64,000 nt of DNA from Candidatus Omnitrophota bacterium (GTDB taxonomy: Bacteria; Omnitrophota; Gorgyraeia; 1-14-0-20-64-10). Under the pieces are notes generated by a model, which saw only the letters and a list, made by a program, of their open reading frames with translations, made no database searches and was not told the origin of the DNA. Within the stretch, counting starts at the first letter, position 1. The number at the start of each line of letters is the position of its first letter. Below, piece after piece: positions 12,693 to 54,322 of the stretch. Where the stretch lies: assembly GCA_016201735.1 (NCBI GenBank), contig JACQCH010000038.1, positions 19,948-83,947 of the forward strand. Direction: 5' to 3'. Made by a program: the position numbers and the translations under genes.

Positions 12693-12790
12693 CAAAAAGT
12701 TCGACCAACTTGCATCACAATCATAGAATGGAAGAATTTTGTGTGACCTGCATAGAAGGTATACAATTTCTGAGTTGGTCGAACTTTTTG
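12693..12790 (+). promoter_or_regulatory. 18-bp perfect inverted repeat (CAAAAAGTTCGACCAACT / AGTTGGTCGAACTTTTTG) with 62-nt spacer abutting the tRNA-Gly 5' end; candidate -10 TACAAT inside
   Basis: Read directly; right arm ends at the tRNA +1 G; TTGTGT-17nt-TACAAT promoter-like spacing inside the loop. Confidence 0.4.
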
Positions 12791-12860
12791 CGGGTGTAGT
12801 TCAATGGTAGAACGGGAGCTTCCCAAGCTCTTAATGGCGGTTCGATTCCGCTCACCCGCT
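12790..12860 (+). tRNA. tRNA-Gly (anticodon CCC)
   Basis: GCGGGTG acceptor/CACCCGC, D-arm GTTC..GAAC, anticodon stem GGAGC/GCTCT with loop TTCCCAA, T-loop TTCGATT, discriminator U; no encoded CCA. Confidence 0.8.
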
Positions 12861-12863
12861 TTG

Positions 12864-13382
12864 CACGCGCTGGGAGGTCTCTCATTGTTTTTAGCGTCCG
12901 CTGTTAATCTGATTGGTTGCACGCAGTACGTGGAGCCGCCGGGACAGGGGATCCGGATTCCTGGAGAGCGGGTTCAGACAGAGGCGGGTCCTCTCCTGGA
13001 ATCGGGGCGGTCCCGGTTTGTTTGGCCGGTGAAGGGGAAGGTGATTTCAATCTTCGGGATGCGGCAAGGGACCTTTCTCAACAAGGGGATTGATATCCAG
13101 GCCCCGACCGGGACGGAGGTTCGGGCCGCCCGGCCCGGGTTGGTGAGTTTTATCCATGAGGAGTTGCCCGGATTTGGGAAAACCATCATCCTGGATCATG
13201 AGGACGGCTTTGCGACGGTGTACGCCTACGTCGGACAGATTCTGGTCCGGCAGGGGGAGAGGGTTGCCCAGCGCCAGGTGATCGCCCGTGTTGGGAAATC
13301 GGGCCGAGCAGAGGTGTCCGCCCTTCATTTTGAAGTTCGGCGGAACCAGCGGCCACAGAATCCGTTCCATTATTTACCTTGA
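12864..13382 (+). CDS. M23 family metallopeptidase lipoprotein
   Basis: Lipobox LIGC after signal peptide; M23 core (HxxxD...ALHFEVR); ORF-track start 12804 would lie inside the tRNA, so TTG ~12864 preferred. Confidence 0.75.
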   Translation, partial: HALGGLSLFLASAVNLIGCTQYVEPPGQGIRIPGERVQTEAGPLLESGRSRFVWPVKGKVISIFGMRQGTFLNKGIDIQAPTGTEVRAARPGLVSFIHEELPGFGKTIILDHEDGFATVYAYVGQILVRQGERVAQRQVIARVGKSGRAEVSALHFEVRRNQRPQNPFHYLP

Positions 13383-15169
13383 TGAACACGCCTTGGTTTG
13401 ACCGGGAGGAGATTCTGACCCTACTGAAGAAGCGGGTCGAAGGATTTCTCGTCGGTTATCGCCAGAACATCGCTCTTTTGGGCCGGGAGGGAGTCGGGAA
13501 ATCCACCCTGCTCAAACGCCTGATCCAGCAGGAACTTTCGGCAGTTCCCGCCCTGATCCCTCTTTACGTGGAAGTACAAGAGGAAGAAAGTTTTTCTGAA
13601 TGGACGGCCCGGTTCGTCCAAACGGTCCTTCTCCATTTCTCCGATGCGCCTGGAACCGCCGCCGCGACTCAGAGATTACAAGTGGTGCGGCCTCCTCTAG
13701 CCGCAGCCGCGGCCGAGCGCCTATTGGTGCTGGCGGAATCCGGTAGGGCCGAAGAGGTGTACGATCAGCTCTGGGATCTTCCCCACTTGATCACTCAGGA
13801 GAAGGGGCTCCCTTGTCTTCTAGTGCTGGATGAGTTTCATCGGTTGAGTTCTCTGGGGGTGAAGGATCCTTTCGGGCGGTTAGGGCGAAAGATCATGGTC
13901 CAAAGCATGACCATGTACCTCGTTGCCTCCTCCCGGCCCGAGGCGGCTCGTTCTATCTTAAGAGAAGGATTGAATCTTTTGTTTGGGCAGTTCGAGACCC
14001 TGCTTGTGGATCCGATGGATCCCTCCGCCTGCGTCCGAACCATCCGGGCTGCCCTGTTCAATGAAAAAGAAGACCCATTCCTGGAACATCTGCTGGTGGA
14101 ATTGGCGCAGGGATATCCGGGTTACCTGGATCTTCTGCTTCAGGGACTGCTGGATCGGCGGGTTCTTGAAGAAGCTTCAGTGAATAGAGAACGCTCCCTG
14201 CTGGATTTGCTGGAGGAGCTTCTCATCGAACCCCGGGGGGCGCTGCGGATCCGATTTGAGGCGCAGATCCGTTTCTTGCCGGCGCATCAAAATCGTCGGT
14301 CCTGGGTGCAGGTTCTGATGGCCGTTGCCGCGGGAAACCACCGGATTCCTCAGATCGCCGAAGCGACCGGCCGGTCCTTCTCCCAGGTGGCCGGAGCCTT
14401 GAAGGCCTTGGGCGGAGTGGGATTGGTTCAAAAACAGGGAGTTTTCTATCGGATGCCGGACCGGTTATTTCAACTCTGGATGCTGGCTGCTTATCCGGTC
14501 CTGCGGGGGATCGACCTGACCGATCCGGCTCATGCCAGGGTCCGTTTCCGAGATGGGGCCTGGATCTGGATGGCGAAGATCCACGAAGCGATGGTCCGGC
14601 CTCTGGAGGAACATGGGGCGGACCTCTTAAGACAGTGGGGCGGAGAACTTGTTGAGGCGGAGGGACGGCGGGTTCATCTTCCGAGATTCAGCCGCGTGGA
14701 GCTGCGTAAGAATTCCATCGGCCGGGTGGTGATTCTCGCCCACCGAAGCCGCGACTCAGAGGTTACAAGTGGTGCGGCCTCCTCTAGCCGCAGCCATGGG
14801 CCCGACTGGCTGGTGGTTCCCTGGAACGGGTCACTGGACGAGAGCCAGGCCAGGTCTCTGGTTAAAGAACTGCTGGAGCCGCCCTTCAAGGATTATCGGA
14901 AGCTGGTGCTGGGAGCCTGTCCGGTTGAAGTGAACGCCCGTTTGGTGTTCCAGCAGGCCCGGATCCGTTTCTGGGATCTGGCTGTCTTCAATGATCTGTT
15001 GGATCTGTACGGGCTGGCCAGGATCGGTTCTCCGGAAGCAGGCCGCAGATCCCCCTTTGAGACAATCCGGCTCGATCCCAACCCCCTCCCTCCTTCCCGT
15101 CATGACCTAGAGCTTAGAAATGGTTTGGCTTCCTCTAGCCAAAGCCAGGAAAATCTTGCAAACTCCTAA
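13379..15169 (+). CDS. AAA ATPase (archaeal-ATPase/DUF234-like) with in-frame repeat insertions
   Basis: P-loop GREGVGKSTLL, Walker B LVLDEFH; carries two copies of a 44-bp repeat in different frames plus a degenerate copy at the 3' end. Confidence 0.7.
   Translation: MMNTPWFDREEILTLLKKRVEGFLVGYRQNIALLGREGVGKSTLLKRLIQQELSAVPALIPLYVEVQEEESFSEWTARFVQTVLLHFSDAPGTAAATQRLQVVRPPLAAAAAERLLVLAESGRAEEVYDQLWDLPHLITQEKGLPCLLVLDEFHRLSSLGVKDPFGRLGRKIMVQSMTMYLVASSRPEAARSILREGLNLLFGQFETLLVDPMDPSACVRTIRAALFNEKEDPFLEHLLVELAQGYPGYLDLLLQGLLDRRVLEEASVNRERSLLDLLEELLIEPRGALRIRFEAQIRFLPAHQNRRSWVQVLMAVAAGNHRIPQIAEATGRSFSQVAGALKALGGVGLVQKQGVFYRMPDRLFQLWMLAAYPVLRGIDLTDPAHARVRFRDGAWIWMAKIHEAMVRPLEEHGADLLRQWGGELVEAEGRRVHLPRFSRVELRKNSIGRVVILAHRSRDSEVTSGAASSSRSHGPDWLVVPWNGSLDESQARSLVKELLEPPFKDYRKLVLGACPVEVNARLVFQQARIRFWDLAVFNDLLDLYGLARIGSPEAGRRSPFETIRLDPNPLPPSRHDLELRNGLASSSQSQENLANS
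13665..13708 (+). repeat. 44-bp intragenic in-frame repeat, copy A (in ATPase gene)
   Basis: CGACTCAGAGATTACAAGTGGTGCGGCCTCCTCTAGCCGCAGCC; encodes TQRLQVVRPPLAAA in the host frame. Confidence 0.75.
14752..14795 (+). repeat. 44-bp intragenic in-frame repeat, copy B (same ATPase gene, different frame)
   Basis: CGACTCAGAGGTTACAAGTGGTGCGGCCTCCTCTAGCCGCAGCC; encodes DSEVTSGAASSSRS. Confidence 0.75.
15104..15146 (+). repeat. Degenerate copy E of the 44-bp repeat (ATPase 3' end / HIT 5' end)
   Basis: GACCTAGAGCTTAGAAATGGTTTGGCTTCCTCTAGCCAAAGCC, ~75% identity to consensus. Confidence 0.5.
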
Positions 15170-15695
15170 GAGCCCTAAACGCCTCTGGGCTCCCTGGCGG
15201 ATCGGCTATCTCGTCGGGACAAAAAACTCTTCGGCTCGGGGTTGCTTTTTCTGCCGGATCCAACACTCTGCGCTTGACGCCAAGAATCATCTGCTGACTC
15301 GCGGGCGGCGCGGATTTTCCGTCCTCAACCGGTTTCCCTACAACAACGGGCATCTCCTCATCGCTCCCTATCGGCATGTCGGCCGCCTGGGATCCCTCAC
15401 AGCGGAGGAGTGGCTGGACCTCTTGGAGTTGTCGAAGGATGGGCTCCAGCGGCTGAAGCGGGTGATGAGTCCGCATGGGTACAATCTGGGGATCAATCTG
15501 GGTCGCTCCGCCGGGGCCGGCATTCCGGGCCACCTGCACCTGCACATCGTTCCCCGCTGGGTCGGGGACACGAATTTCATGCCGATCATCGCCGAGATGA
15601 AGGTGATTTCCCAGTCGCTCGATTCCGCCTATTCCTCGCTCAAGTGGTCAAGGAAAGGTCATGCCAAGAAGGTCCGCCGAAAACCTCGTCACTAG
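15120..15695 (+). CDS. HIT family hydrolase
   Basis: Histidine triad HLHLHIVPR; N-terminus APWR; start uncertain (15120 ATG overlaps the ATPase 3' end and the degenerate repeat copy). Confidence 0.75.
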   Translation: MVWLPLAKARKILQTPKSPKRLWAPWRIGYLVGTKNSSARGCFFCRIQHSALDAKNHLLTRGRRGFSVLNRFPYNNGHLLIAPYRHVGRLGSLTAEEWLDLLELSKDGLQRLKRVMSPHGYNLGINLGRSAGAGIPGHLHLHIVPRWVGDTNFMPIIAEMKVISQSLDSAYSSLKWSRKGHAKKVRRKPRH

Positions 15696-19284: not shown

Positions 19285-20042
19285 ATCGAGGTCTGGTCCT
19301 TATCCCTGTTTTGTCCATGTTGGCGCTGAGCAGTGCGGCCGGCTGCCGCGGAGGTTTTTCTACGCTTGAGCGGCCCAAGGGCCAGATTGAACTCCAGCAG
19401 CCGGAGCAGAAGGAAAAGGAGATCAAGCCGGTCATCATGGATCCGATGACGGCCGCCCTGTCCAAATCGGGAATCGATGTGACCATCCGGTACGCCACTC
19501 CGGATGAACTGGATCATTTCTTCGAGAAGAAAGAGGTGTTCGGAGTTCTCGCGGGGAAAAACCCTTACCCTCCTGGGACCCTCGTTTTCTACGTGAAGAT
19601 CGCCAATTTCAGCGGCAAGAAGATCAGGGTCAATCCCGAAGATTTTGTTCTTATCGACAATCTGAACATCCAGTATTCGGAGCTTTCGCCGGACAACATC
19701 TCGGCCATTTACGAGTCCAAGGCCAGTATGTTGAACTTTGCCAAGACCACTGGGGATTTGGCCCCAGGTCCCTACGGTCTGCCGCTCAAGGTGGCGGGGA
19801 CATTTGGCGGCGGAGGAGCCCGCAAGATGCATTACTTGATCAAGCAGGTCCGCTTGGCCGGGGGGGTCGTCCATCCGGGCATTGCGTACGATGGGTACGT
19901 GGCTTTTCCGCGCCCGCATCCCAACGCTGTCTCGGTCCGGCTCCTGATCGAGAATCTGAAGACAGACTTCAACGCGGCCGATCTCCCAGCCAGCGCGGTC
20001 GACTTTGAATTCCCATTCGGCATTAAAGAGCCCAAACAGTAA
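19281..20042 (+). CDS. Hypothetical lipoprotein
   Basis: Signal peptide with lipobox LSSAAGC. Confidence 0.5.
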   Translation: MNRGLVLIPVLSMLALSSAAGCRGGFSTLERPKGQIELQQPEQKEKEIKPVIMDPMTAALSKSGIDVTIRYATPDELDHFFEKKEVFGVLAGKNPYPPGTLVFYVKIANFSGKKIRVNPEDFVLIDNLNIQYSELSPDNISAIYESKASMLNFAKTTGDLAPGPYGLPLKVAGTFGGGGARKMHYLIKQVRLAGGVVHPGIAYDGYVAFPRPHPNAVSVRLLIENLKTDFNAADLPASAVDFEFPFGIKEPKQ

Positions 20043-23000
20043 GATCCTTCCCCCGGTGAAGTCCCGGGTTCTTCAGTCACTCAACTCCGAACAGCAGGAA
20101 GCCGTGCAGGCGACGGAAGGGCCGGTATTGATCCTGGCGGGGGCAGGGACCGGAAAGACCCGGGTCATCGCTCACCGGATCGCCTACCTGTTGGAGACAC
20201 ATCCGGACCTGACCCCCGCGAATATCCTGGCCTTGACGTTTTCCCGAAAGGCCTCTCAGGAAATGCTGGAGCGGGTAGAGGATCTCTTGGGCGGCACCGC
20301 GGATGAGTTGGAGGTCTTCACCTTCCATGGTTTTTGCCATCGCTTCATCCAGGATCACCCCCTTGAGGCGGGGATTCCTTCCCGGTTCCAGCTTCTTGAC
20401 CGGATTGAATCATGGATCTTCTTCCGGAAGCTCCTTCCCGAATTAAAGCTCGCCCTCTTCTGGAATTACGCCGACCCGACCGACTGCATCGACGGGTTCC
20501 TGCGGTTCATCAGCCGGGCCAAGGATGAGAGGGTCTCTCCCGAGGAGTTTTCGGCTTACGCGGAGAAGGTCGAGGATCCCCACGAGCGGGCCCGCTGCCG
20601 GGAAGTGGAGCGGGTCTACCGGACGGTCCAGGAAAGGATGCGAGCTTTGGGGGCGCTCGATTTTGGAGACCTGATCGTTCGGACCCTCGGGGCGCTTGAG
20701 CAGCGGCCTGTTCTTCTCGCGCAGCTTCAATCCAAGTATCGCTATATCCTGGTGGATGAATTCCAGGATACCAATGTGGCGCAGATCGCGCTCCTGGGAA
20801 TGCTCGCCGGCAAGGCGGGCAATCTTTGTGTGGTGGGGGACGACGACCAGGCGATCTATCGTTTCCGGGGCGCTTCTTTCGCAAGCTTCCTGTTGATGAA
20901 ACAAATGTTCCCCGGCTTGAAGACCATCCGGCTTACCCAGAACTACCGCTCCACCCCGCAGATCCTGGCCTCGGCTGACCGGCTGATCCGCCATAATGAA
21001 CCGGATCGATACGACCCCGAGAAGAGTTTATGCGCGCAGGCGCAAGGCGGGCTGCCCGTGGAGGCCGTGGTTTGCCGGGATGAGATGGATGAAACTCAGA
21101 AGGTGATCGAGACGATCCGGACCCTCGCGGGGAAGGAACCAGCCACGACTCAGAGCTTACAAGTGGTGCGGCCTCCTCCAGCCGCAGCCACGCGCCGGTG
21201 GGACCGGATTGCCGTCCTCTATCGGGCTCACAGCCACAGGGATCGGCTGGTGCAGGAATTGGACAAGGCGGGGGTTCCTTTTGTTGTTCATGGAGGAGCT
21301 GCCCTTTTTGATCAGATCGAGATCAAGGATCTGATCGCCTTCCTGCGGGTTCTGCTGGATCCTTCCGATTCGGTCCATCTGTTTCGGATTCTTTCGCATC
21401 CGATCTGGGGGATTCCCCCTGCCGATCTGATGGCGATCCCCCGGGCGGCGAAGGAACGTCGGATCTCCTTGATCGAGATGTTAAGGTCTGTCGGGGATCT
21501 GCCCGTCCAGCCGGCGACGCAAGGGGCGGCCTTGGAACTCTTGAGGGAGTTGGACGGCCTCCATCCCCGGGTGATCCGGGAGGGGGTTGGAACGTTGGTT
21601 CCGCGGGTTGTCGAGGAGACTTCCTTGCGGACGGTGTTCCGTCCAACCTCCGGATTTCCCGCAGCGGGGAGATCGGGAAATCCACTGATTTCTCTGGGGC
21701 GATTCCTTCGATTTGTCTACCGGTACAGTCAGACCCACCCGGGATCCGAGGAGTTAAGTTCCTTCCTCTGGTACCTGGATTCCTACCGGCAGGCGGGAGG
21801 GGACGGCCAGGAGGAAGAAGAAGAGATCGCCGGGAATCAGGTCCGTTTAATGACCATTCATCAGGCCAAGGGATTGGAGTTTGAATGGGTGATCCTCCTG
21901 GGGCTGGTTCAAGGGCGGTTCCCCGGGCGGGGCCGGCCGGAAGCGATTCCGTTTCCGGTGGAATTGATGAAGGAGCCGCTCCCTCAAGGGGATTACCATT
22001 TGCAGGAGGAACGCCGCCTCTGCTACGTCGCCTGCACTCGGGCGAGGCAGGGATTGTTTCTGATGACGCAGGAGCGTCTCTACCATCGGCCTTCCCTCTT
22101 TATCCGCCAGATGAGCGACCAGGCTCCGGCTGAGGAGTTTCAGTGGCGCCGGAGCGAGGGCCCGGCCGGAGCCGCCCCTCCCGCCGAATCCTCGGGGAGC
22201 GATTCCTTGGCGGCGGAACGGCATCTCCTGCAGATCCTCAAGGAGATCCGGGCGTTGGATCCAAAGGATGAGGCAGGGTTCTCGGAGCGGGCGCGCCGGA
22301 TGACGGATCTGACGGCGGGTTTATGGAAGGAGCGGGGATCCCAGCTTGAGGAGAAAGGCCCGAGCCCTTTTCCACTCCCGGCGAAATTCAGCTACACACA
22401 GCTGCAGACCTACCGGTACTGTCCCATGAAGTATCAATACAGCTACCTGTACCAGATCCCGGTGCGGCCGACTCCCCAGATGTTCTTTGGAATCGATCTT
22501 CACGGGTGTCTCGAAGGATTCTTCCGGAAGGTGATGGAAGGGCAGGTCCCTTCCCTGGAAGAACTGCTGGAATCTTTCCGGGGGGCCTTCGCCCCCGGCC
22601 GGTACGGGGAGCCGGTTCAGGAACAGGAATATCGCCGTCTGGGGATTGATCTGTTAACCTCCTTCTACAAAAAGAACGAGGGGGCCTTCGGGGTGCCGCT
22701 CTTCGTCGAGAAATCCTTCTCTCTTGCCATGGGGGATGCCTCGGTTCAAGGGGTGATCGACCGGGTGGATCCCCTGGGCGAAGGGGGGATTGAGATCATC
22801 GATTACAAGACCGGGAAGCCGAAATCGGATCTGGGACCGGACGATCAACTACAGCTCCAGCTGTACGCGTTGGCGTGCCGGGAGGTTCTTGGGCTTGTCC
22901 CCAAACGGTTAAGCCTCTATTTCCTCCGCAGCGGCGAAAAGCTTTCTTTCGAGCAGACGCCGGAAACATTGGAGTCCACCAGGAGCCAGGTCCAGGAGAT

Positions 23001-23100
23001 TGTGCGCGAGATCCGCTCCGGAGATTTTTCCCCCACCCCATCCCTGATGAAATGCCGTCGCTGCGACTTCCGGAATCTGTGCCCGGCCAGCATGGCATAG
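20005..23100 (+). CDS. UvrD-family helicase fused to C-terminal PD-(D/E)XK (RecB/Cas4-like, Cys-cluster) nuclease
   Basis: Walker A AGAGTGKTRV, UvrD motifs; C-terminal nuclease with YRYCPMKY...DYKTGKPK...QLQLY...CRRCDFRNLC; carries an in-frame 44-bp repeat. Confidence 0.85.
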   Translation: MNSHSALKSPNSKILPPVKSRVLQSLNSEQQEAVQATEGPVLILAGAGTGKTRVIAHRIAYLLETHPDLTPANILALTFSRKASQEMLERVEDLLGGTADELEVFTFHGFCHRFIQDHPLEAGIPSRFQLLDRIESWIFFRKLLPELKLALFWNYADPTDCIDGFLRFISRAKDERVSPEEFSAYAEKVEDPHERARCREVERVYRTVQERMRALGALDFGDLIVRTLGALEQRPVLLAQLQSKYRYILVDEFQDTNVAQIALLGMLAGKAGNLCVVGDDDQAIYRFRGASFASFLLMKQMFPGLKTIRLTQNYRSTPQILASADRLIRHNEPDRYDPEKSLCAQAQGGLPVEAVVCRDEMDETQKVIETIRTLAGKEPATTQSLQVVRPPPAAATRRWDRIAVLYRAHSHRDRLVQELDKAGVPFVVHGGAALFDQIEIKDLIAFLRVLLDPSDSVHLFRILSHPIWGIPPADLMAIPRAAKERRISLIEMLRSVGDLPVQPATQGAALELLRELDGLHPRVIREGVGTLVPRVVEETSLRTVFRPTSGFPAAGRSGNPLISLGRFLRFVYRYSQTHPGSEELSSFLWYLDSYRQAGGDGQEEEEEIAGNQVRLMTIHQAKGLEFEWVILLGLVQGRFPGRGRPEAIPFPVELMKEPLPQGDYHLQEERRLCYVACTRARQGLFLMTQERLYHRPSLFIRQMSDQAPAEEFQWRRSEGPAGAAPPAESSGSDSLAAERHLLQILKEIRALDPKDEAGFSERARRMTDLTAGLWKERGSQLEEKGPSPFPLPAKFSYTQLQTYRYCPMKYQYSYLYQIPVRPTPQMFFGIDLHGCLEGFFRKVMEGQVPSLEELLESFRGAFAPGRYGEPVQEQEYRRLGIDLLTSFYKKNEGAFGVPLFVEKSFSLAMGDASVQGVIDRVDPLGEGGIEIIDYKTGKPKSDLGPDDQLQLQLYALACREVLGLVPKRLSLYFLRSGEKLSFEQTPETLESTRSQVQEIVREIRSGDFSPTPSLMKCRRCDFRNLCPASMA
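21146..21189 (+). repeat. 44-bp intragenic in-frame repeat, copy C (in UvrD-nuclease gene)
   Basis: CGACTCAGAGCTTACAAGTGGTGCGGCCTCCTCCAGCCGCAGCC; encodes TTQSLQVVRPPPAAA. Confidence 0.75.
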
Positions 23101-28925: not shown

Positions 28926-29765
28926 CTAATTTAATGGTATTTCCTCACGCCTTCTTTTCTCATTCGTGAGAGTGGATAAGGCCTGCTCTACCATGGATTC
29001 ATCAATGGTCCGGGATTCCCGAACAAATCCAGCCAGCAGGGCTTGGTCGCAAATCCGATTAATCCGACGCGGAATGCCCTGGGAAATTTCTGCGATTTTA
29101 GCCATTGCGCCCGGGGTGAACAGAGGAATCCCTTTTTCTCCGGCGATCTGGATCCGGTGGTCGATGTAAGAGGCCACCTCTTCTTCAGCGAGGGGCTGGA
29201 TTTGATAGCGGACAGCGATTCGCTGGTGAAGGGCTCTTAATCTGGGGTCCTTATCCAGCCGCTCGGTCAATTCCGGCTGTCCGATCAGGACAATCTGGAG
29301 AAGTTTTCTCTTCGGGGTCTCGACGTTGGAGAGCAGCCGTACCTGTTCAAGGGTGGAACTGCTCAGGGCCTGGGCCTCATCAACAACCAGCACCGCTTCA
29401 CCTCCAGAGGCGGCCTGCTCCAGAAGGAAGATCTCGATGGCTTGAAGGAGCTGGGCTCGTGAGGAGCCGGATGGAGGAACCCCGAAATCCTTCAGCACCG
29501 CTCTTAAGAGCTGCGCGCTGCTTAAGGTCGGATGAAGGATGAGGGCGGTCTTGGCGGAGGAGGGAAGTTTCTCGATCAGTGTTTTGGCCAGTGTCGTTTT
29601 TCCGGTTCCCACCTCGCCGGTGATCATCAAGAAACCGAGCCTTTCTCGGATCCCGTACGTCAAGTGATTGAGCGCTTCCTGGTGCTGGCGGGAAAGATAG
29701 AGGAAGGTAGGGTCTGCAGTGACGTGGAATGGTTTTTCTCTGAATCGATAGAAGACTTTGTACAT
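28926..29765 (-). CDS. ExeA/GspA-like AAA ATPase
   Basis: Walker A GEVGTGKTTL, Walker B LVVDEAQ; internal ATG (MYKVFYRF) likely start. Confidence 0.75.
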   Translation of the reverse strand: MYKVFYRFREKPFHVTADPTFLYLSRQHQEALNHLTYGIRERLGFLMITGEVGTGKTTLAKTLIEKLPSSAKTALILHPTLSSAQLLRAVLKDFGVPPSGSSRAQLLQAIEIFLLEQAASGGEAVLVVDEAQALSSSTLEQVRLLSNVETPKRKLLQIVLIGQPELTERLDKDPRLRALHQRIAVRYQIQPLAEEEVASYIDHRIQIAGEKGIPLFTPGAMAKIAEISQGIPRRINRICDQALLAGFVRESRTIDESMVEQALSTLTNEKRRREEIPLN

Positions 29766-29867
29766 CCCCTCCCCCTTCGGAAAGCAGGGTACCATGATAG
29801 GGAAGATCTTGCAATTTGTTTAACTTTCTTCTATAAAGGGAGTATTCCCAAGGAGGACTTGTAATCC

Positions 29868-33128: not shown

Positions 33129-34238
33129 GTGAAAAAGGGTTGCGAACAGAAGGGTAGCTACTACAGGGAAAAGAGCGATACAATGATAGAAAATGAAGGG
33201 TTATCTATGCCGAGTTTGAAAGAGAAACGACGGAAATCGCAGTCACGATATACAGGGAATCATCGCCCCACCTACGCTGTTGTCCGTGATGGAACTATTC
33301 TCGCATCGGCCCCATCAGCCACCCATTGCGATGCTGCAGCTAGCGGGCTGATCGACATTGGTTCTCAGAGAGTCTGCCAATGTGGTCCTACTCACATCAA
33401 TTGCCTCACCGCGAAGGAATGGATGAAGAACCAGCTCGGCGTGTGGCAGTTCTTCTACGAGAGAAGAGACATCCGGGACAAATCTCTTCATCCTGCAACG
33501 TATCCGATTGCGCTCGCCAAGAAATGCATCGAGTTGTTTACCCACAAAGGAGAACTTGCTCTGGATCCTTTCGTTGGATCAGGGACGACTCTGGTGGCGG
33601 CGGCGGATTGCGATCGCAATGCGGTGGGTTTCGATCTCCAAGAGGGATATGTTACCCTCTGCAAGAAGAGGCTCAGTCAGAACCAGTTATTTAACACTTC
33701 CAAGCAGGTTGCCGTTCGGGATGACGCTAGGAACATTTCCGATTATCTTAAACCGGAAACAGTCAGCCTTATCGTCACATCACCCCCGTATGCGAATCTG
33801 CTCAATCGAAAGCGCCTCAACAAGAGCCGCAGGGGCGACCAGCGCAAGAACGACCAGTACCTGAAAATCGAGCAGTACAGCCAAGATAAACGGGACCTCG
33901 GAACCCTGGCTGTCGAGGACTATGCTCGAGAAATGGCGGAGATTTATCGAAAGTTGCTCCCGCTGCTCAGACCAAAAGCCCACTGCGTCATTAACGTGCC
34001 CGACATGTGGTGGGAGAATAAGCGGATTACCATTCACGTGTTTCTTATCCAAGCGTTGCGGGAGGTCGGTTACGAGTTGCGCAACGTCATCATCTGGGAC
34101 CGGACGAACATTGTGAACCAGATCGGCATATTTGGCTGGCCGTCCAACTACATCACGATGGGTGTGACTTTTGAGTATCTCCTCGATTTCTGGCGGCCGC
34201 CTGCTGGAGCAAGCCCGAATGGGACCTCGGCGCATTGA
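33129..34238 (+). CDS. N4/N6 DNA methyltransferase (DPFVGSGTT and SPPY motifs)
   Basis: HPATYPIALAKKCIELFT...LDPFVGSGTT (motif I) followed ~70 aa later by IVTSPPYAN (motif IV); low-GC region. Confidence 0.8.
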   Translation: MKKGCEQKGSYYREKSDTMIENEGLSMPSLKEKRRKSQSRYTGNHRPTYAVVRDGTILASAPSATHCDAAASGLIDIGSQRVCQCGPTHINCLTAKEWMKNQLGVWQFFYERRDIRDKSLHPATYPIALAKKCIELFTHKGELALDPFVGSGTTLVAAADCDRNAVGFDLQEGYVTLCKKRLSQNQLFNTSKQVAVRDDARNISDYLKPETVSLIVTSPPYANLLNRKRLNKSRRGDQRKNDQYLKIEQYSQDKRDLGTLAVEDYAREMAEIYRKLLPLLRPKAHCVINVPDMWWENKRITIHVFLIQALREVGYELRNVIIWDRTNIVNQIGIFGWPSNYITMGVTFEYLLDFWRPPAGASPNGTSAH

Positions 34239-35005
34239 AGATTCTGACCAAAGATGCGCTTATAGAAAAGCTAAAAGAGATCCGATCCAGCGGATGGATC
34301 CCGAATGCTCGTCCTGGAAACTCGGGTGGGGTTGGAAATACCATTGAAGACCTGCTGGGAATTAAAGAAAACAACCTCCCGATTCCCAATGCTGCTGAAT
34401 GGGAACTGAAATGCCAGCGGGTAGGCACCTCGCTGACCACCCTATTTCACCTCGAACCCTCGCCGCGTGCCCTCAAGATTGTCGGTGAAATTCTTTTGCC
34501 AAAGTATGGGTGGAAGCATGCCTCTATCTCCAGCGAGATGAGTTTTCGCCAGACGATCAGCGGACATTCACGGAGTGATCGCGGCTTCATGGTCGTTGTC
34601 GACAGATCCGCAAAGAAAGTCCTTATCTCGTTCTCGGCGGGCGCTGTTGATAAAGAGCGGCATGCAAAGTGGCTGTCTTCAGTGCAGAAAAGGGGTGGGC
34701 TTGGTGAACTCAACCCGCAACCGTATTGGGGTTTCGACGACCTCGGTCACAAGGCGGGAACAAAACTACTGAATTGTTTCTATGTACAGGCACAGGTGAG
34801 GCGAGAGAAGGGGAAGGAATTTTTTATGTATGACAAGATCCTTATCCTTCAGAGGTTCAGCATTGAAAAGTTCCTGAAAGGAATTGGGGAAGGGTTTGTG
34901 TATGTGGATTTCGATGCCAGAACACACCATAACCACGGAACGAAATTTCGGCTTCGACAGGACAGCCTACCCGACCTCTATGAAACAGCTCAAACTGTGA
35001 CATGA
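34235..35005 (+). CDS. Putative type II restriction endonuclease (possibly MvaI/BcnI family)
   Basis: 256 aa, overlaps MTase stop; size and pairing with an SPPY-type MTase fit the monomeric MvaI/BcnI type; family assignment from memory only. Confidence 0.5.
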   Translation: MKILTKDALIEKLKEIRSSGWIPNARPGNSGGVGNTIEDLLGIKENNLPIPNAAEWELKCQRVGTSLTTLFHLEPSPRALKIVGEILLPKYGWKHASISSEMSFRQTISGHSRSDRGFMVVVDRSAKKVLISFSAGAVDKERHAKWLSSVQKRGGLGELNPQPYWGFDDLGHKAGTKLLNCFYVQAQVRREKGKEFFMYDKILILQRFSIEKFLKGIGEGFVYVDFDARTHHNHGTKFRLRQDSLPDLYETAQTVT

Positions 35006-42613: not shown

Positions 42614-43041
42614 AGTTTAAGCGGCAGTTCTCGTCCGGAGGAATTGTTTTTCGGAAAACCGGCGCGGGGCTCCGGGTGGCTTTGATCTCCCGCGAGGGAG
42701 GAAAGATCTGGTGTTTGCCCAAAGGGTTGATTGAGAAAGGGGAATCGGTTCAGGAGACGGCGCTGAGAGAGGTCCGGGAGGAGACCGGTTTGATCGGGAA
42801 GATCGTCCGAAAGCTGGGGGATGTGAGCTACTGGTATGTCTCCGATGAGGAAGGAACGAAGTTCTTCAAGAAGGTCTCTTTTTTCCTCCTTAAGCATCAG
42901 GGAGGGAATACCCGTCACCATGATTTTGAGGTGGATGAAGTGGCCTGGATGCCGGTGGAGAAGGCCCTCCGGAAACTGACCTATGAGAGTGAGCGGAGAT
43001 TGATGTTGCGGGCCAAGAGGTTGGTTGGAGGGGCGGGGTGA
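42610..43041 (+). CDS. NUDIX hydrolase
   Basis: Nudix box GLIEKGESVQETALREVREETG; last 4 codons plus stop are a solo element end (GGAGGGGCGGGGTGA). Confidence 0.8.
   Translation: MKFKRQFSSGGIVFRKTGAGLRVALISREGGKIWCLPKGLIEKGESVQETALREVREETGLIGKIVRKLGDVSYWYVSDEEGTKFFKKVSFFLLKHQGGNTRHHDFEVDEVAWMPVEKALRKLTYESERRLMLRAKRLVGGAG
43027..43041. repeat. Solo right end of the TGA-flanked element (GGAGGGGCGGGG+TGA) embedded in the NUDIX 3' end / polX start
   Basis: Exact 15-mer match to the right termini of copies 1, 3, 4; provides SD GGAGG, GTG start of polX (43038) and TGA stop of NUDIX (43039-43041); no left end found upstream. Confidence 0.55.
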
Positions 43042-44765: not shown

Positions 44766-44780
44766 AGGAAAGGAATCTCG

Positions 44781-45476
44781 TTGAAACCCTCCGCACCCTA
44801 TCTCCGAAGGACGTTGACAAGGATCTATGAAAAGCTCCTTGTCCGATTCGGCCGCCAGCATTGGTGGCCGGGGGAGACCCCTTTTGAGGTGATGGTTGGG
44901 GCGATCCTCACCCAAAATACCGCTTGGAGAAACGCCTCCATCGCCATTGAACGATTGAAGAAGGCCGATCTTCTGAATTCGGCTCGGCTGGACCGGGTGC
45001 CAAAAAGTCGGCTGGCTAAGCTGATCCGTTCATCCGGATATTTCAATCAGAAAGCCAAACGGCTGAAATCCTTTGTCCGGTATTTCCAGAAGAGATATGG
45101 AGGATCTGTTCCTCAAATGAGGCGGATTCCGTTGGATCCCCTTCGGAAAGAACTGTTGAGTTTACCGGGAATCGGCCCCGAAACAGCCGACAGCATTCTC
45201 CTCTACTCTCTGGGAAAGCCGATCTTCGTTGTGGATGCCTATACCCGCCGAATCCTTGCCCGTCACAGCCTGATTTCCTGGGAGGCTTCCTACGAGGAGA
45301 TTCAGGCTCTTTTTCAGCGGAATCTGCTCACCTGGTCCCCTCTTTTCAATGAATACCATGCCCTCTTGGTGGCGTTAGGGAAAGAGCTGTGCCGGACTCA
45401 CCCGGAATGTCATCTTTGTCCCCTCCGCTCCATCGGAAAACTCCGCCTGGAAACCAGTCCGGCCCCTATAGCGTAA
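44781..45476 (+). CDS. Endonuclease III-like HhH-GPD family protein
   Basis: VMVGAILTQNTAW...LPGIGPETADSILLY HhH-GPD. Confidence 0.8.
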   Translation: MKPSAPYLRRTLTRIYEKLLVRFGRQHWWPGETPFEVMVGAILTQNTAWRNASIAIERLKKADLLNSARLDRVPKSRLAKLIRSSGYFNQKAKRLKSFVRYFQKRYGGSVPQMRRIPLDPLRKELLSLPGIGPETADSILLYSLGKPIFVVDAYTRRILARHSLISWEASYEEIQALFQRNLLTWSPLFNEYHALLVALGKELCRTHPECHLCPLRSIGKLRLETSPAPIA

Positions 45477-46839: not shown

Positions 46840-47940
46840 TTATCGGACATTACTAAGGATTTGCATTGCCTCTGCGGTTCCTATCCTTTCAAGCGCCCAG
46901 GCAGCATGCTGTCTGACAAGGGGCGAGCTGTCTTTCAAGAGGGTCTCGCCAAGAATGGGGATCCATTGTGGATCCCGGCTGTTTCCTGCAGCGACCGCCG
47001 CATTCCGGACAAGACCGACCCGCTTGGCCCGCATCAGGGGAGTCCCGGCGAAACGTTTGAGGAAATCCTCATCGGAGCGGCATTCCAGCAGCTCTTTTAA
47101 AGGAATTTGGTCCCCTGCCCCCGATTCCGGTCCGAACTCTTCCCAATCGGTTTTCAGACCTTTCCGGTTGTAAGGGCAGACTTCCTGACAGATATCACAG
47201 CCGAAAATCCAGTCCTGCATGAGAGGCCTTAACTCCGGGTCGACGGCCTCTTTGAGCTCAATGGTTAAATAAGAGATACAGCGCCGGGCATCCAGTTCGT
47301 AGGGGCGCGTCAAGGCCTGTGTTGGACAGGCTTCCAGACAAAGGGTGCAGGCCCCGCAGTCCCACCGGATCGGCTCATCCGGTACCAACTCCAGGTTCGT
47401 TAAAAGGGCTCCCAAGAAAAAGAAAGAGCCGCCGTTTGGGCGGATCAGACAGGTGTTCTTCCCGAAAAAACCCAAGCCCGATAACTCCGCGAGCACCCGT
47501 TCTTGGAGGGGACTGGTATCAACGGAGCGGAGAATCCGGGGCGGTGGATCCGGCACCTGGGCCCGGATGAAAGACTCTAATTTCTTGAGGCGCTTATCCA
47601 TCGCCCGGTGGTAGTCGCGGCCCCAGGCATATCGGGCAATCCGGCCGGTGCTGGGGGGCCTGGGTGGATTGACACCGGGGGATGAATCATAGGGGACGGC
47701 AACGACGATGACGCTCTTGATGTCCGGGAAACCTTTTTGTAGGCGGGACTGTCTCTCGAAGAAGGCTTCCATGTATTGGAGGCGGCCCGCGAGCCCGGAG
47801 CTGATCCATTGGGTAAGCTCCGGTTGTCTTGCTTGGAGAGCCGAGGCCGCGGCGATTCCTACGGCCTGGAACCCTAAGGCCAGAGCCCGTTTCTTAATAA
47901 CTTGAGTGAGCAGATTGCTCCCCGACTCGCCACAGTTCAC
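46840..47940 (-). CDS. queG: Epoxyqueuosine reductase
   Basis: Two 4Fe-4S Cys clusters (CGACTLCLEACP...CDICQEVCP), C-terminal HEAT-like repeats. Confidence 0.9.
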   Translation of the reverse strand: MNCGESGSNLLTQVIKKRALALGFQAVGIAAASALQARQPELTQWISSGLAGRLQYMEAFFERQSRLQKGFPDIKSVIVVAVPYDSSPGVNPPRPPSTGRIARYAWGRDYHRAMDKRLKKLESFIRAQVPDPPPRILRSVDTSPLQERVLAELSGLGFFGKNTCLIRPNGGSFFFLGALLTNLELVPDEPIRWDCGACTLCLEACPTQALTRPYELDARRCISYLTIELKEAVDPELRPLMQDWIFGCDICQEVCPYNRKGLKTDWEEFGPESGAGDQIPLKELLECRSDEDFLKRFAGTPLMRAKRVGLVRNAAVAAGNSRDPQWIPILGETLLKDSSPLVRQHAAWALERIGTAEAMQILSNVR

Positions 47941-49897
47941 AGAGATCCTCAGGCAACTCCTGCAGGAAGACGGAGGGGCGCAGCATGATCTCGCCCCGCT
48001 GGTAACTGTACCGGGTCATTGGGTAGGTCAGATACAGCTCCCGCTTGGTCCGGGTGATGGCCACGTAAAAGAGCCGCCTCTCTTCCTCCAGGGCGTCCGG
48101 ATCCTGGATCGACTTGGGATGAGGGAGTTGTCCCTCCACCAATCCGATCAAGAAGAGGGCGCGCCATTCCAATCCCTTGGCTTGATGAATGGTGGAGAGA
48201 ACCAAAAGCTCGTCGGGCTCCTCCCACCCCCGGATCGATTCTCCCTTGAAAGGTTCCCGCAGAGTGATATCTTCAATGAACCGGTCGACCCGCCGATAAT
48301 TGGCGGCTAAGTTGACCAACTGCTCCAAGTCCTCCCGGCGGTCACGCGAATCTTCAAAGTGGGTCTGAAGGCGGGCTTCATATCCGGAGTGCAGAATCGC
48401 CAGGATCATCTCCGCCGGGCGATTGGCGATGGACCGGCCGGTGAGCTCCCGGAGGGTCTGGCAGAACCGCTTCCAAGCCGGTTTTGCCCGGGAGGGGAGC
48501 GAGTCCCCTGCACTGCCTTGGATCGCTTCCTCAACTGGGTTGGCCGCCGTGCTCAGGGCGGTCCAGATTCGGTGAGCGTAAGCGGGTCCGATCCCTTCTT
48601 GAAGCCGAAGGGCTCTCTCCCAAGCCAATTCGTCTTGTGGATTTGCCAGGATCCGAAGGTAGGCCAAGACATCCTTGATGTGGGCCTGTTCAAAGAAACG
48701 GACTCCCCCTCGGACAATGTAGGGGATATTCCGTTTGGCCAGCTCCAGTTCCAACTCGGCGGCCTGAAACCGGGCTCGGAAAAGCACCGCGATCTCTTCA
48801 AGGGGAATCCCCTCCTCCCGTAGTTCCAGCGCCCGTTGGGCCACAAAGGCCGCCTGTTGTTTCGACGACACCAGCGGCACGACCGCTGGAAGGGGTCCCG
48901 TCTCCCGCACGCTTTTGAGCTCCTTGGGAAATTGATGGGTATTAAATCGGATCGAGGCGTTGGCCAGCCGCAGGATCTCCGGCGTGGACCGGTAATTGGT
49001 CTCTAGGCGGTAGATGGTGGTGCCGGAGAAAACCTCAGGGAACTCCAAGAGATTTTTAACCTCCGCGCCCCGGAAGGCATAGATGGCCTGGGCATCATCT
49101 CCGACGGCCAGGATATTGCCGTTGGGTTGCCCCATCTGCCGGATCAGTTCAAACTGGAGGCGGTTGGTGTCCTGGTACTCATCCACGAGGAGGTAGCGGA
49201 ACTGCTCGCTGTACCGTTGGCGGATCTCTTTGTCTTCACGAAGAAGGGTCAGCCAGAGGAAAAGCAGATCGTCGTAGTCCATCAGGTTCCCCTTCTGTTT
49301 CCTGGCCTGGTATGCCTTGGAGACCCGCTCGATGAAGGGGAGAAATTCGGAGAACTGGGAGTACCGCTCTGTCACGACCTGTTCGAGGGATCGGCAGGTG
49401 TTGATGGAGAGACTGAGGATCGATTCCAGGACGTTTGTCTGGGGGTACCGGGTTTCCGCGGAGGGGATTTTAAAATCGCTGACGCAGGACTGGATCAAAT
49501 CCTTGGCATCCTCTTCGTCGAGAATTCCGAAGGAGGGGGTCCGGTGGACCTTCTCCGCATGCTGGCGAAGGAGAAGATTACCGATGTGGTGGAAGGTTCC
49601 TCCCCAGAGAGCCTCCGGATGGTATTTTAGGAGCCGTTCCACCCTCCCGAGCATCTCCCGGGCCGCCTTGACGGTGAAGGTCACCAGCAGAATTTGATTC
49701 GGATCGACCCCCTGTTCGATGAGGTAAGCGACCCGATAAGTCAGAGTCCTGGTTTTTCCGGAGCCCGGGCCGGCCAATACGAGGATCGGCCCATCGGGCG
49801 CGGTGACAACCTGGAGCTGTTCGGAGTTCAGTTCCTTTTCATAGGGGATGGAAGACTTCTGGACTGCTGGTTTCTGAAGGAGGTACCGCTTAGGCAT
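47894..49897 (-). CDS. pcrA: ATP-dependent DNA helicase PcrA/UvrD
   Basis: Walker A AGPGSGKTRT and all UvrD motifs; likely start ATG 49897 (ORF-track GTG 49924 lies inside the 44-bp repeat). Confidence 0.9.
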   Translation of the reverse strand: MPKRYLLQKPAVQKSSIPYEKELNSEQLQVVTAPDGPILVLAGPGSGKTRTLTYRVAYLIEQGVDPNQILLVTFTVKAAREMLGRVERLLKYHPEALWGGTFHHIGNLLLRQHAEKVHRTPSFGILDEEDAKDLIQSCVSDFKIPSAETRYPQTNVLESILSLSINTCRSLEQVVTERYSQFSEFLPFIERVSKAYQARKQKGNLMDYDDLLFLWLTLLREDKEIRQRYSEQFRYLLVDEYQDTNRLQFELIRQMGQPNGNILAVGDDAQAIYAFRGAEVKNLLEFPEVFSGTTIYRLETNYRSTPEILRLANASIRFNTHQFPKELKSVRETGPLPAVVPLVSSKQQAAFVAQRALELREEGIPLEEIAVLFRARFQAAELELELAKRNIPYIVRGGVRFFEQAHIKDVLAYLRILANPQDELAWERALRLQEGIGPAYAHRIWTALSTAANPVEEAIQGSAGDSLPSRAKPAWKRFCQTLRELTGRSIANRPAEMILAILHSGYEARLQTHFEDSRDRREDLEQLVNLAANYRRVDRFIEDITLREPFKGESIRGWEEPDELLVLSTIHQAKGLEWRALFLIGLVEGQLPHPKSIQDPDALEEERRLFYVAITRTKRELYLTYPMTRYSYQRGEIMLRPSVFLQELPEDLCELWRVGEQSAHSSY

Positions 49898-49941
49898 GGC
49901 TGCGGCTAGAGGAAGCCGCACCACTTGTAAGCTCCGAGTCG
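49898..49941 (-). repeat. 44-bp repeat, copy D, immediately 5' of the pcrA start codon (minus strand)
   Basis: Reverse complement CGACTCGGAGCTTACAAGTGGTGCGGCTTCCTCTAGCCGCAGCC abuts the ATG at 49897. Confidence 0.7.
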
Positions 49942-49957
49942 TGCCTGCGCAAAATTT

Positions 49958-54320: not shown

Positions 54321-54322
54321 CG

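Follow-up and report, generated by a model that had tools for sequence, protein, structure and literature searches.

A family of very small hairpin repeats in Omnitrophota genes, probably non-autonomous selfish elements, with RPE-like action and a REP-like look

Rickettsia palindromic elements (RPEs) are repeats of ~100-150 bp that fall into ten families, occur only in Rickettsia and encode one conserved peptide per family (Ogata et al, 2000, summarised in PMC10969869). Miniature inverted-repeat elements lying in frame within genes are also on record, namely intragenic ERIC, the Coxiella QMITE and the pneumococcal BOX (PMC10969869, PMC5896051). So far, in-frame selfish DNA has mostly been regarded as a Rickettsia curiosity. 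Here we describe a 45-nt repeat from a 64-kb stretch of Omnitrophota DNA (hereafter the window), for which we found no published description in the literature.

The window harbors five copies of this repeat (c1 to c5; Table 1), against a chance expectation of 0. A 33-mer of the repeat gives four matches at up to three mismatches, compared to none in 100 dinucleotide shuffles, and a covariance model, searched across the entire window with all filters disabled, scores the five copies at 48-61 bits, all other positions staying at or below 13 bits. All five places named in an earlier note on this DNA are thereby confirmed, including the copy within the UvrD-nuclease gene; of the length given there, 44-45 bp, the 45-nt unit stands and the 44 does not. 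Copies c1 and c2, which differ by a single base, are indeed read in different frames (S2 and S1, respectively) of one and the same ATPase ORF. The copy at the ATPase/HIT junction (c5) had been described as decayed, which is not simply so: two stem changes that compensate each other set its core apart from those of c1-c4, and its 26-nt core is the exact TT/AA stem variant, the most frequent core among low-GC Omnitrophota. The copy located 5' of pcrA on the opposite strand (c4) is present as claimed, with the correction that it is intergenic and runs up to the pcrA ATG.

Table 1. Repeat copies and host genes in the window (positions in the 64-kb stretch)
Feature	Position	Strand	Description
Copy c1	13664..13708	+	45-nt unit, GCGACTCAGAGATTACAAG + core TGGTGCGGC-CTCCTCTA-GCCGCAGCC; in the AAA-ATPase ORF, Walker A / Walker B interval; element frame S2, giving TQRLQVVRPPLAAAA
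Hairpin H2 of c1	arms 13684-13691 / 13700-13708, loop 13692-13699	+	
Copy c2	14751..14795	+	45-nt unit; same AAA-ATPase ORF as c1; frame S1, giving (R)DSEVTSGAASSSRS(H)
Copy c5	15102..15146	+	45-nt unit, separate subfamily; core TGGTTTGGC-TTCCTCTA-GCCAAAGCC
Copy c3	21145..21189	+	45-nt unit, loop variant CTCCTCCA without TAG; in the UvrD-helicase/PD-(D/E)XK nuclease ORF; frame S2, giving TTQSLQVVRPPPAAA; CAGCCACG on either side
Copy c4	49898..49942	-	45-nt unit; orientation that of pcrA; intergenic
Host gene 1, AAA_22/AAA_16 ATPase with winged-helix and C-terminal domain	13379..15169	+	596 aa; holds c1, c2 and, in its tail, c5
HIT-family gene	15120..15695	+	nine initial codons within c5
Host gene 2, UvrD-family helicase fused to PD-(D/E)XK nuclease	20005..23100	+	1031 aa; holds c3
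pcrA-like UvrD-family helicase	47894..49924	-	ATG at 49897; automatic ORF listing reaches GTG 49924 inside c4

The earlier note anticipated that orthologues would lack the inserts and that these would map to loops, and both expectations are borne out. c1 represents an exact gain of 15 aa over orthologue P0002 (76% identical), and the c2 insert is missing from 23/23 aligned ATPase orthologues. In the AlphaFold model of the ATPase (mean pLDDT 84.6), c1 overlaps a low-confidence segment (residues 90-102), c2 sits between two beta strands with pLDDT <50 at residues 463-471, and the tail (553-595) is also of low pLDDT. The position of c3 corresponds to a 17-residue gap in the PcrA structures 1pjr/2pjr, from a helix end (...IREA) to a strand (...FAVLYR). 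c5 is read in two frames by two adjoining genes: in S1 it forms the C-terminal tail of the ATPase (NGLASSSQSQ), and in S2 the start and N-terminus of the HIT protein (MVWLPLAKA). The alignment of the HIT protein with its orthologue L043 starts at LPLA, and the sequence of L043 may retain a decayed remnant, CTTCCCTTGGCT, at the same ATPase/HIT junction. c4 begins 16 nt past the stop of the upstream PilZ ORF, ends exactly at the pcrA ATG and holds a GGAG followed, after 7 nt, by the in-frame GTG 49924, which could be an alternative pcrA start.

A search of related genomes with the 26-nt core TGGTnnGGC-YTCCTCYA-GCCnnAGCC, as the earlier note had envisaged, returned 114 further loci (42 genome and 72 metagenome), all from Omnitrophota-type MAGs with a GC content of 39-68%. 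The element thereby occupies at least 87 unrelated sites (site clusters) in many genomes, at a density of five copies per 64 kb in the window and of about ten exact cores in each MAG elsewhere. No copy was found on viral contigs, and the Rfam 15 covariance models gave no match at either gathering or permissive thresholds. GC skew in the orientation of the element is positive in 39/65 loci (p=0.14) and tracks gene orientation; a link between orientation and replication was therefore rejected.

The unit measures 42 nt, or 45 nt in the subfamily of the window, and consists of two directly abutting hairpins on the strand written TGGT... The first, H1, is variable in sequence with a purine-rich tetraloop NGAG, while the second, H2, is nearly invariant with a stem of 8-9 bp and the loop YTCCNNYA. 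Covariation was measured on 71 distinct 42-nt units, in which H1 had been left unconstrained by the search pattern. Five of the six H1 pairs are changed on both sides, 86% of cells are paired overall, compared to 75% in shuffles, and covariation scores 0.249, against 0.101 in shuffles, a value reached by 0/500 of these, with slid controls at or below 0.09. When variants detected by the covariance model are added, 10/14 pairs covary, four of them in H2 (e.g. GCCGC/GCGGC and TTGCC/GGCAA). Where the earlier note saw one small hairpin, the element thus has two, both backed by compensatory changes. A G.A/G.A stem variant is present also in copies antisense to their host gene, which argues for folding of the DNA and not of the mRNA. 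As for a kissing interaction of the two loops, GAGG in H1 and CCTC in H2, inspection by eye showed no covariation among the variable loop positions. Some copies appear to have been recruited by the host to begin or end a gene: the loop TAG would act as a stop, and a GTG or ATG at the H1/H2 junction, preceded by a GGAG-like H1 loop, as a start.

The explanation that we favor, with a probability of roughly 0.6, is that these repeats form a family of very small non-autonomous selfish hairpin elements, specific to Omnitrophota, which act like RPEs and look like REPs. Their mobility we infer from their distribution. New copies would arise as whole units, either at new sites or as tandem duplicates, and those at new sites would often be accompanied by a short imperfect copy, on the far side, of the 2-5 nt with which the unit opens. 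The start of the unit is repeated over at least 3 nt in the right flank of 35% of copies, compared to 6% of controls. By the logic of REP/RAYT or IS200/IS605, the hairpins would serve as the recognition signal for a trans-acting enzyme of single-stranded DNA, as suggested by a stem kept through compensatory changes and by a tandem G.A variant whose stability is confined to one strand. Tolerance inside genes stems from a unit length that is a multiple of three, from mostly stop-free frames and from the flexible loops that the unit encodes.

Candidates for such a partner were sought in the window and in the loci recovered. Pfam returned no transposase among the ~40 window genes scanned, a regular expression for the HUH/Y1 motif found none among 2,832 ORFs in ~0.75 Mb of loci, and tblastn of the same ~0.75 Mb with approximate sequences of IS200 TnpA and the E. 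coli RAYT gave no Y1/HUH ORF; these are weak tests, covering a tiny fraction of each genome. The one tblastn match, at E=0.24 in L027, was judged spurious, as it lies in a shadow frame that reads through the element. In the window, the AAA_22 protein at 28929-29795, with a weak match to TniB, looks like an ExeA-type ATPase adjoining SPOR proteins.

A clearly less probable explanation is that of a hairpin-prone minisatellite spreading without dedicated machinery, by replication slippage and microhomology-mediated template switching that would copy whole periods from existing, especially tandem, copies. It agrees with the tandem arrays, which repeat exactly every 42 nt and end in partial units, with the quantal gain and loss in EtfA described below and with the lack of a transposase in the genes and loci searched. 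The variable length of the homology between the start of the unit and the right flank (e.g. at L019, L007, L083 and L091) lends it further weight: at junctions deduced from diverged orthologues and not from near-identical empty/filled allele pairs, it ranges from 0 to 14 nt, being ~5 nt at EtfA and enolase and absent at c2. Combined with unit ends (RYNRG... and ...GCCNNAGCC) that, read from the sequence, are not inverted copies of each other, so that terminal inverted repeats are lacking, this range is a poor fit to a classical fixed target-site duplication. Against slippage and switching stand the many unrelated sites and the left boundary of the unit, which has a constant phase in all copies although switching should enter at any phase. 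Likewise, the 26-nt hairpin is kept with compensatory changes across 39-68% GC, which points to specific recognition, and the 45-nt subfamily is dispersed, with no tandem copies seen. The latter carries GCC|RYG at both junctions, a rule that fails for the 42-nt subfamily, which has no constant left flank. H1 was also considered as a copy of the target and rejected, given that the gain at enolase, EtfA and DapA amounts to all 42 nt.

The fate of insertions can be followed at EtfA, for which we surveyed 120 orthologues in an unbiased sample not chosen by nucleotide pattern. The linker measures 8 residues in 32 of them, 22 in 47, 36 in 12 and 50-52 in 3, i.e. 0, 1, 2 or 3 units at +14 aa each, decayed peptides among them. 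After insertion, copies thus decay, duplicate or are lost in quanta of 14 aa, and the orthologues with the empty 8-residue linker do without the insert. The residues encoded by the H2 stem stay paired (L/Q 57, S/R 15, mixed 2), whereas the loop decays freely at orthologous sites (ASSSQ, ASDSQ, ASSGQ, PSVRQ). Compared to the DNA of empty sites, the left flank copy shows synonymous changes (ATAAA to ACAAG) that improve H1 pairing.

The initial nucleotides of the unit, those repeated in the flank, pair and covary with internal positions 18-21. Together with the EtfA pairing and the apparent supply of starts and stops, this leads us to a more speculative proposal, to which we give only a minor share of our confidence. 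The element would then be no decaying junk but a long-lived replicator, or a module used by the host, that persists throughout the phylum: either a hairpin element of ~40 nt mobilised by a single-strand enzyme of HUH type, domesticated and passed on vertically, with targets chosen by pairing with the H1 foot, or else a hairpin that the host keeps in its ORFs, e.g. to signal translation or RNA processing through an anti-Shine-Dalgarno-like loop.

Rather unlikely, in our estimate, is that the hairpin is a functional nucleic-acid signal under host selection, its insertion in genes being incidental, whether as the site for a phylum-specific protein, as an RNA-processing or translation-pausing hairpin (again with an anti-Shine-Dalgarno-like loop) or as a DNA uptake signal. 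The core is conserved phylum-wide, and the stem residues kept paired at EtfA could mean selection at the level of the host rather than pure selfishness, as could the flank changes just described; however, the S/R group may be one clade, so that the EtfA covariation may reflect a single event. As for uptake, one of the genes of the window, adjoining PilB/PilC/secretin genes, codes for a minor pilin of the ComP_DUS family (31 bits, cut-off 27.3), and AAGTGGTGCGG may resemble the Haemophilus uptake core, AAGTGCGGT. Yet the uptake signals on record reach ~1 per kb and originate through point mutation instead of 14-aa insertions, and the density of the element is low in the window and in the MAGs alike. 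The free decay of the loop, the 32/120 EtfA orthologues with an empty linker and the ~30% of copies that are antisense to their host gene also speak against a host signal.

Reading frames bear on the nature of the repeat itself. Over 115 copies, the element is read in five of six frames, mostly in sense and mostly as G-x-ASSS-x-S, the other readings including VVRPPLAAA, LRLEEASPRP, AAARGSRTT and GFGWRRPHH. The majority of copies lie within ORFs, and the 87 site clusters comprise 55 sense and 23 antisense cases, with 18 intragenic readings in S1, 4 in S2 and 6 antisense. The location of most copies in ORFs is as the earlier note expected, and the frames, with S1 and S2 both in use in the window, uphold its view of a nucleotide-level repeat rather than a protein motif. 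Two of its proposals are not supported. Frame preservation is not selected insertion by insertion, as the unit is inherently 42 or 45 nt long and free of stops in two of three sense frames (and in one or two antisense frames); and targeting of ATPase/helicase genes finds no support in a set of hosts that include, with Pfam support, enolase, SerA, DapA, HemC, Dxr, MDH, IspA, RecJ, UvrA and Pth, and further EtfA, LeuRS, SdhD, QueC and CoaE. The commonest reading (G-x-A-S-S-S-x-S and flanks) is a flexible hydrophilic loop located in surface loops, domain linkers and termini. That a conserved peptide or linker of 14-15 residues was acquired by many proteins, the DNA likeness being a by-product, agrees with the dominance of S1 and with a peptide that has persisted in several species at its sites in EtfA, enolase and IspA, and is nonetheless highly implausible given translation of the same DNA in at least five frames or orientations, an untranslated copy (c4), covariation that tracks base pairing and not amino-acid similarity, and close orthologues missing the insert.

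A far smaller element than those of Rickettsia resides in core enzymes (enolase, LeuRS, Dxr, MDH, RecJ, UvrA, UvrD) of a whole uncultivated phylum, and, if the family of selfish hairpin elements that we favor is real, the lower size limit of a dispersing element would be ~40 nt. The repeats amount to a natural experiment that shows where conserved proteins accept 14 extra residues in a loop and how such insertions are gained, multiplied, decayed and lost. They also provide a nucleotide marker by which Omnitrophota can readily be recognised in metagenomes, and are a source of gene-calling artefacts, in that ORFs read through the element and starts, false or true, fall within it. A partner enzyme, if it exists, would make this a compact hairpin-guided DNA insertion system.

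Among known systems, the uptake sequences of Neisseria (DUS) and Pasteurellaceae (USS) are similarly lineage-wide conserved DNA words, often intragenic and read in several frames; they differ in being 9-12-bp words at ~1 per kb, spread by mutation and drive with no hairpin needed, whereas the element consists of 42-nt insertions at 5 per 64 kb. In-frame MITEs are likewise small non-autonomous repeats that sometimes fuse their own ORF with host genes, but no counterpart of their terminal inverted repeats and parent IS is seen for the element, nor of their fixed target-site duplication, its flank repeat being enriched but variable in length. The IS200/IS605-derived PATEs have a hairpin near each end, no inverted terminal repeats and no fixed target duplication, and insert beside a short sequence resembling their own end; the element may be alike in these respects, with GCC|RYG at both junctions of the 45-nt subfamily but no such rule in the 42-nt one. 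PATEs are, however, 100-400 bp long, intergenic and bounded on the left and right by the ends of a known IS, whereas the element is ~40 nt, with no TnpA found in the loci searched.

In appearance the element resembles REPs (cf. PMC3184786): both are short (20-40 nt for REPs), imperfectly paired hairpins whose 5' foot bears a conserved motif (GTAG in REPs, TGGT in the element), and both show structure-preserving changes, long persistence in a lineage, single or clustered occurrence and no terminal inverted repeats. REPs are extragenic by definition and usually number hundreds per genome, whereas most copies of the element lie in ORFs. Its two hairpins are in direct orientation, unlike the inverted pairs of REPINs, and, unlike REP/REPIN systems, no RAYT accompanies it in the window or in ~0.75 Mb of loci, which are fragments of genomes. 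In action it resembles RPEs, which are also nucleotide-level repeats found in frame in unrelated housekeeping genes, adding a peptide where the fold permits; RPEs too are found outside coding DNA as well, are palindromic or hairpin-forming and lack their own transposase. The RPE-like behavior claimed at the outset therefore holds for insertion in loops of housekeeping proteins and not for family membership. Where an RPE is one long palindrome of ~100-150 bp, the element has 42-45 nt and two short adjacent hairpins, one of them nearly invariant; where each RPE family has one peptide, it is read in several frames and forms in-frame tandem arrays; and where RPEs are confined to Rickettsia, it occurs phylum-wide in Omnitrophota at 39-68% GC. 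The element is not a member of the RPE, REP or MITE families, and size, architecture and described taxon set it apart from RPEs.

A 33-mer core of the repeat matched four sites in the window at ≤3 mismatches and none in 100 dinucleotide-preserving shuffles, and a covariance model trained on 48 copies, applied to the full window with its filters disabled, recovered exactly five copies (c1-c5; 48-61 bits) and none beyond these above 13 bits, so that the repeat described in the earlier note is present at the places indicated. Aligning the five copies gives a 45-nt unit, [A/G]CGACTCAGAG-N-TTACAAG followed by TGGTGCGGC-YTCCTCYA-GCCGCAGCC; of the 44-45 bp first proposed, the upper length holds and the 44-nt bounds do not.

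Element copies and neighbouring features (S1 and S2, sense frames on the strand written TGGT...; L, loci outside the window).
Feature	Positions	Strand	Context
c1	13664-13708	+	inside AAA_22/AAA_16 ATPase ORF (13379-15169); S2, read TQRLQVVRPPLAAAA
c2	14751-14795	+	inside the same ATPase ORF; S1, read DSEVTSGAASSSRS
c3	21145-21189	+	inside UvrD-helicase/PD-(D/E)XK nuclease ORF (20005-23100); S2
c4	49898-49942	-	intergenic, 5' of pcrA and in frame with it (S2); in-frame GTG at 49924
c5	15102-15146	+	ATPase/HIT junction; S1, ATPase tail; S2, HIT start
PilZ ORF	49958-50536	-	stop 16 nt upstream of c4
tRNA gene	12790-12860		69 bits; overlaps 5' end of predicted ORF 12804-13382
ORF	12804-13382		same place as LysM/M23 peptidase of syntenic locus L043
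Restriction-modification pair	33129-35002		N6_N4 DNA methylase, MvaI/BcnI-family endonuclease
DNA-maintenance genes	43038-49924		near c4: PolX-type polymerase with PHP domain, HhH-GPD glycosylase, QueG, pcrA; c3-bearing gene further upstream
Pilus genes	52211-57593	-	2.3 kb from c4: minor pilin with Pfam ComP_DUS (DNA-uptake-sequence receptor family; 31.1 bits, cut-off 27.3) and N_methyl, then PilC-like (T2SSF), PilB-like (T2SSE) and secretin genes
L058	105-2433		metagenome contig (GC 0.41); at least 9 copies or variants in 2.4 kb, partly tandem, one inverted
L033	4982-5029, 4652-4699		two copies in one gene
L064	956-1048		two copies in one gene
L094	1393-1499		one gene reads one copy as DSEITSGAASASRSH, the next as TQRLHLVRPPLAAAT

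All sources of the 73 homologues of the ATPase hosting c1 and c2 are Omnitrophica-labelled or unlabelled metagenomes, with a 100% match on a 108-kb 'Candidatus Omnitrophica bacterium' MAG contig. Relatives lacking the inserts, which the earlier note proposed to look for, do exist: in an alignment of 24 homologues the c2 segment is present in the window ATPase alone, and c1 corresponds to exactly 15 extra residues relative to the 76%-identical orthologue P0002. The expected placement in surface loops is also supported. Aligned with the PcrA structures 1pjr and 2pjr, c3 occupies a 17-residue gap that follows a helix and precedes the FAVLYR strand. The ATPase as modelled by AlphaFold (mean pLDDT 84.6, pTM 0.79) falls below pLDDT 50 only at residues 90-102, predicted to overlap the first residues of c1 (about 96-110), at 463-471, predicted within c2 (about 458-472), and at 553-572 and 579-595, in the modelled C-terminal tail carrying c5 (about 574-588).

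The two remaining copies lie at gene boundaries. As first described, c4 sits just 5' of pcrA, between the PilZ stop and the pcrA ATG, which its end abuts exactly; GGAG stands 7 nt ahead of its internal GTG. Read in frame S2, c5 encodes the start of the HIT gene, its ATG and first nine codons; the HIT orthologue in L043 starts V-I-LPLAHKR, encoded by CTTCCCTTGGCT, perhaps what decay has left of the same insertion. Copy c5 itself is not the decayed copy of c1-c4 it was taken for: its core TGGTTTGGC...GCCAAAGCC exactly matches another stem variant, which differs by two compensatory changes. A GTG or ATG at the junction of the two hairpins (H1 and H2, described below) also occurs in frame S2 in L053, L106 and L089, and in the 45-nt type the H1 region carries GGAG/AGAG 7 nt upstream of this codon. 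Genes that may have their start within the element are pcrA, HIT and, at other loci, CoaE among others; the loop TAG appears to serve as stop codon of the upstream gene in some loci. Elsewhere in the window, the ORF overlapping the tRNA gene probably starts further downstream than predicted, and the restriction-modification pair, lying in the stretch of lowest GC in the window (0.52-0.53 versus about 0.58), suggests an acquired island.

Most copies are 42 nt long; the 45-nt subfamily of the window accounts for 24 copies, spread over many unrelated genes. The fold of the 42-nt unit consists of two hairpins that directly abut: H1, in which a bulge separates two outer from four inner pairs and an NGAG tetraloop closes the stem, and H2 (GGT-NN-GGC / GCC-NN-A-(G)-CC, loop YTCCNNYA). 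In the 45-nt subfamily the H1 region hardly varies and does not form a clear hairpin. Since the search pattern left H1 unconstrained, it offers an unbiased test of structure: among 71 distinct 42-nt units, both sides changed in 5 of its 6 pairs, paired cells overall reached 86% (75% in shuffles), and the covariation score of 0.249 (0.101 in shuffles) was attained by 0 of 500 shuffles, slid controls giving at most 0.09. The free H2 positions read TT/AA, GC/GC, TG/CA, TC/GA, GT/AC or tandem G.A. The covariance model added about 30 variant copies in loci already found, with further compensatory stems (GCCGC/GCGGC, TTGCC/GGCAA, GGCGC/GCGCC, TTCGC/GCGAA) and YTCC-NNN-A loops; across 128 distinct rows, in an alignment fitted to that model, covariation is seen at 10 of 14 pairs and H2 pairing stands at 94%. 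The hairpin seen by the earlier reader is H2, its stem kept by compensatory changes, to which H1 is added in 42-nt units. Note that G.T pairs and tandem G.A are stable on the written strand only; as G.A copies are also found antisense to host genes, this hints at single-stranded DNA rather than mRNA as the folded species.

Gain and multiplication are seen in EtfA. In an unbiased sample of its 120 closest Omnitrophota orthologues (76-100% identity), linker length rises by 14 residues, from 8 (RIMDKKAV; 0 units, 32 proteins) to 22 (1 unit, 47 proteins), 36 (2 units, 12 proteins) and 50-52 (3 units, 3 proteins), besides a few partial forms. Insert peptides are often diverged (GLASDSQSH, GSASDSRSH, GLASSGQSH, GLPSVRQSH); therefore copies, as read from these sequences, decay after insertion, the loop being the most variable part. 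The stem-encoded residue pair stays matched (L with Q 57, S with R 15, mixed 2; counts that ignore phylogeny), reflecting either in-situ stem selection or changes that arose once or a few times among the lineages. Empty sites read ATG GAT AAA | AAG GC (L117, L118) and filled sites G-ACAAG-...-AAAGCC-AYAAR-AAG GC. The first nucleotides of the unit are repeated just 3' of it over ≥3 nt in 35% of copies, versus 6% of mismatched pairs, and over up to 14 nt; the 45-nt subfamily has GCC|RYG at both junctions, and the element carries no terminal inverted repeats. Tandem arrays keep an exact 42-nt period, and low-complexity protein segments of L058 seem built largely from the element. Slippage with template switching, without any enzyme, accounts for the arrays and the variable microhomology, but fits less well with the fixed phase of the unit and the phylum-wide conservation of the hairpins. 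A host-functional signal fits poorly: the pilin of the ComP_DUS family next to the type IV pilus genes raised the idea of an uptake sequence, but this is unlikely given the low copy density, the insertion origin of the copies and the dispensability of the EtfA insert.

Frames were assigned by codon usage, the model having been trained on long ORFs from these loci. The 115 non-identical copies reduce to 87 site clusters, of which 55 are oriented with the local gene and 23 antisense to it, and both flanks code in one frame in 28 (S1 18, S2 4, antisense 6); the stop-containing frame is used only where the loop TAG is CAG (L028) or the copy is placed at a gene end. The same DNA read in several frames excludes a protein-level motif, in agreement with the earlier reading of a nucleotide-level repeat. 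GC skew follows gene orientation, with no independent replication-strand signal. Single genes (IspA, YggS-like, others) can hold two copies that differ in age or frame.

By translation and Pfam match, the inserts fall in loops that can be recognised in conserved enzymes: in enolase (L034, L097; RDGDK[PAGNGLASSSQSHK]TRY, the Enolase_N match covering 144 residues against a profile of 131 positions), in EtfA between its two 4Fe-4S motifs (L042 and others), after the CAAC motif of LeuRS (L038), between ...KKY and KIE... in Pth (L067), in the hairpin loop ...VGP[insert]VTDW... of a Zn-dependent alcohol/threonine dehydrogenase-like protein (L026; family assigned by eye), in N-terminal loops of SerA, DapA and HemC (L035, L093, L091) and in internal loops of Dxr, MDH and IspA (L014, L023, L033/L065). 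Repair proteins are also among the hosts, with internal-loop inserts in UvrA, XseA and RecJ (L076, L077, L083). Other copies lie at the N-termini of SdhD and, antisense, QueC (both L085), or directly after the signal peptide of giant secreted proteins (L008, L030, L016, L069, L075). The host range is therefore broad, and the helicase/ATPase pattern of the window, once considered as possible targeting, is coincidence.

Scanning 185,579 species-representative genomes with the degenerate core TGGTNNGGCYTCCTCYAGCCNNAGCC, which leaves two stem positions free per side, returned 42 loci, and metagenomes a further 72; viral contigs gave no match to this core. The search of related genomes suggested earlier extends the element well beyond the window, at locus GC of 0.39-0.68. 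All 42 genome loci belong to MAGs whose titles read either Candidatus Omnitrophota/Omnitrophica or 'uncultured Planctomycetia/Planctomycetales', the latter being ENA co-assembly bins that make up about half of these loci (L002, L004, L007, L008, L031 etc.). Because these bins have element subfamilies and even insertion sites (EtfA in L031 and L042) in common with Omnitrophota bins, their titles are probably taxonomic mislabels.

Overall, these data identify a repeat at the nucleotide level that is dispersed, structured and specific to Omnitrophota-type genomes. It has entered the loops and ends of many proteins in whole units of 14 or 15 codons, with a history of gain, tandem multiplication, decay and loss. 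We infer a selfish, non-autonomous element whose hairpins would be recognised, probably as single-stranded DNA, by a trans-acting enzyme; no partner gene for mobility was found in the window and the loci, which are genome fragments. A length that is a multiple of three, the lack of stops and a Ser/Ala/Gly-rich reading would allow it to persist, and purifying selection on the encoded peptide could produce the sense/S1 bias.

We found no paper on such an element in Omnitrophota. The likeness to Rickettsia palindromic elements (RPE) proposed earlier holds for behaviour, in-frame and in loops, but not for size (about 150 bp versus 42-45 nt), the two short hairpins or the reading in several frames. 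The element looks like REP sequences but, unlike them, lies within genes, and the genome fragments yielded no RAYT. MITEs have inverted repeats and a fixed duplication; here inverted repeats are absent and the flank repeat varies in length. The element departs from both RPE and REP in defining features. It is classed with in-frame selfish or palindromic DNA, where it stands out by its minimal size, by a reach that spans the phylum and by the variety of essential proteins that carry it.
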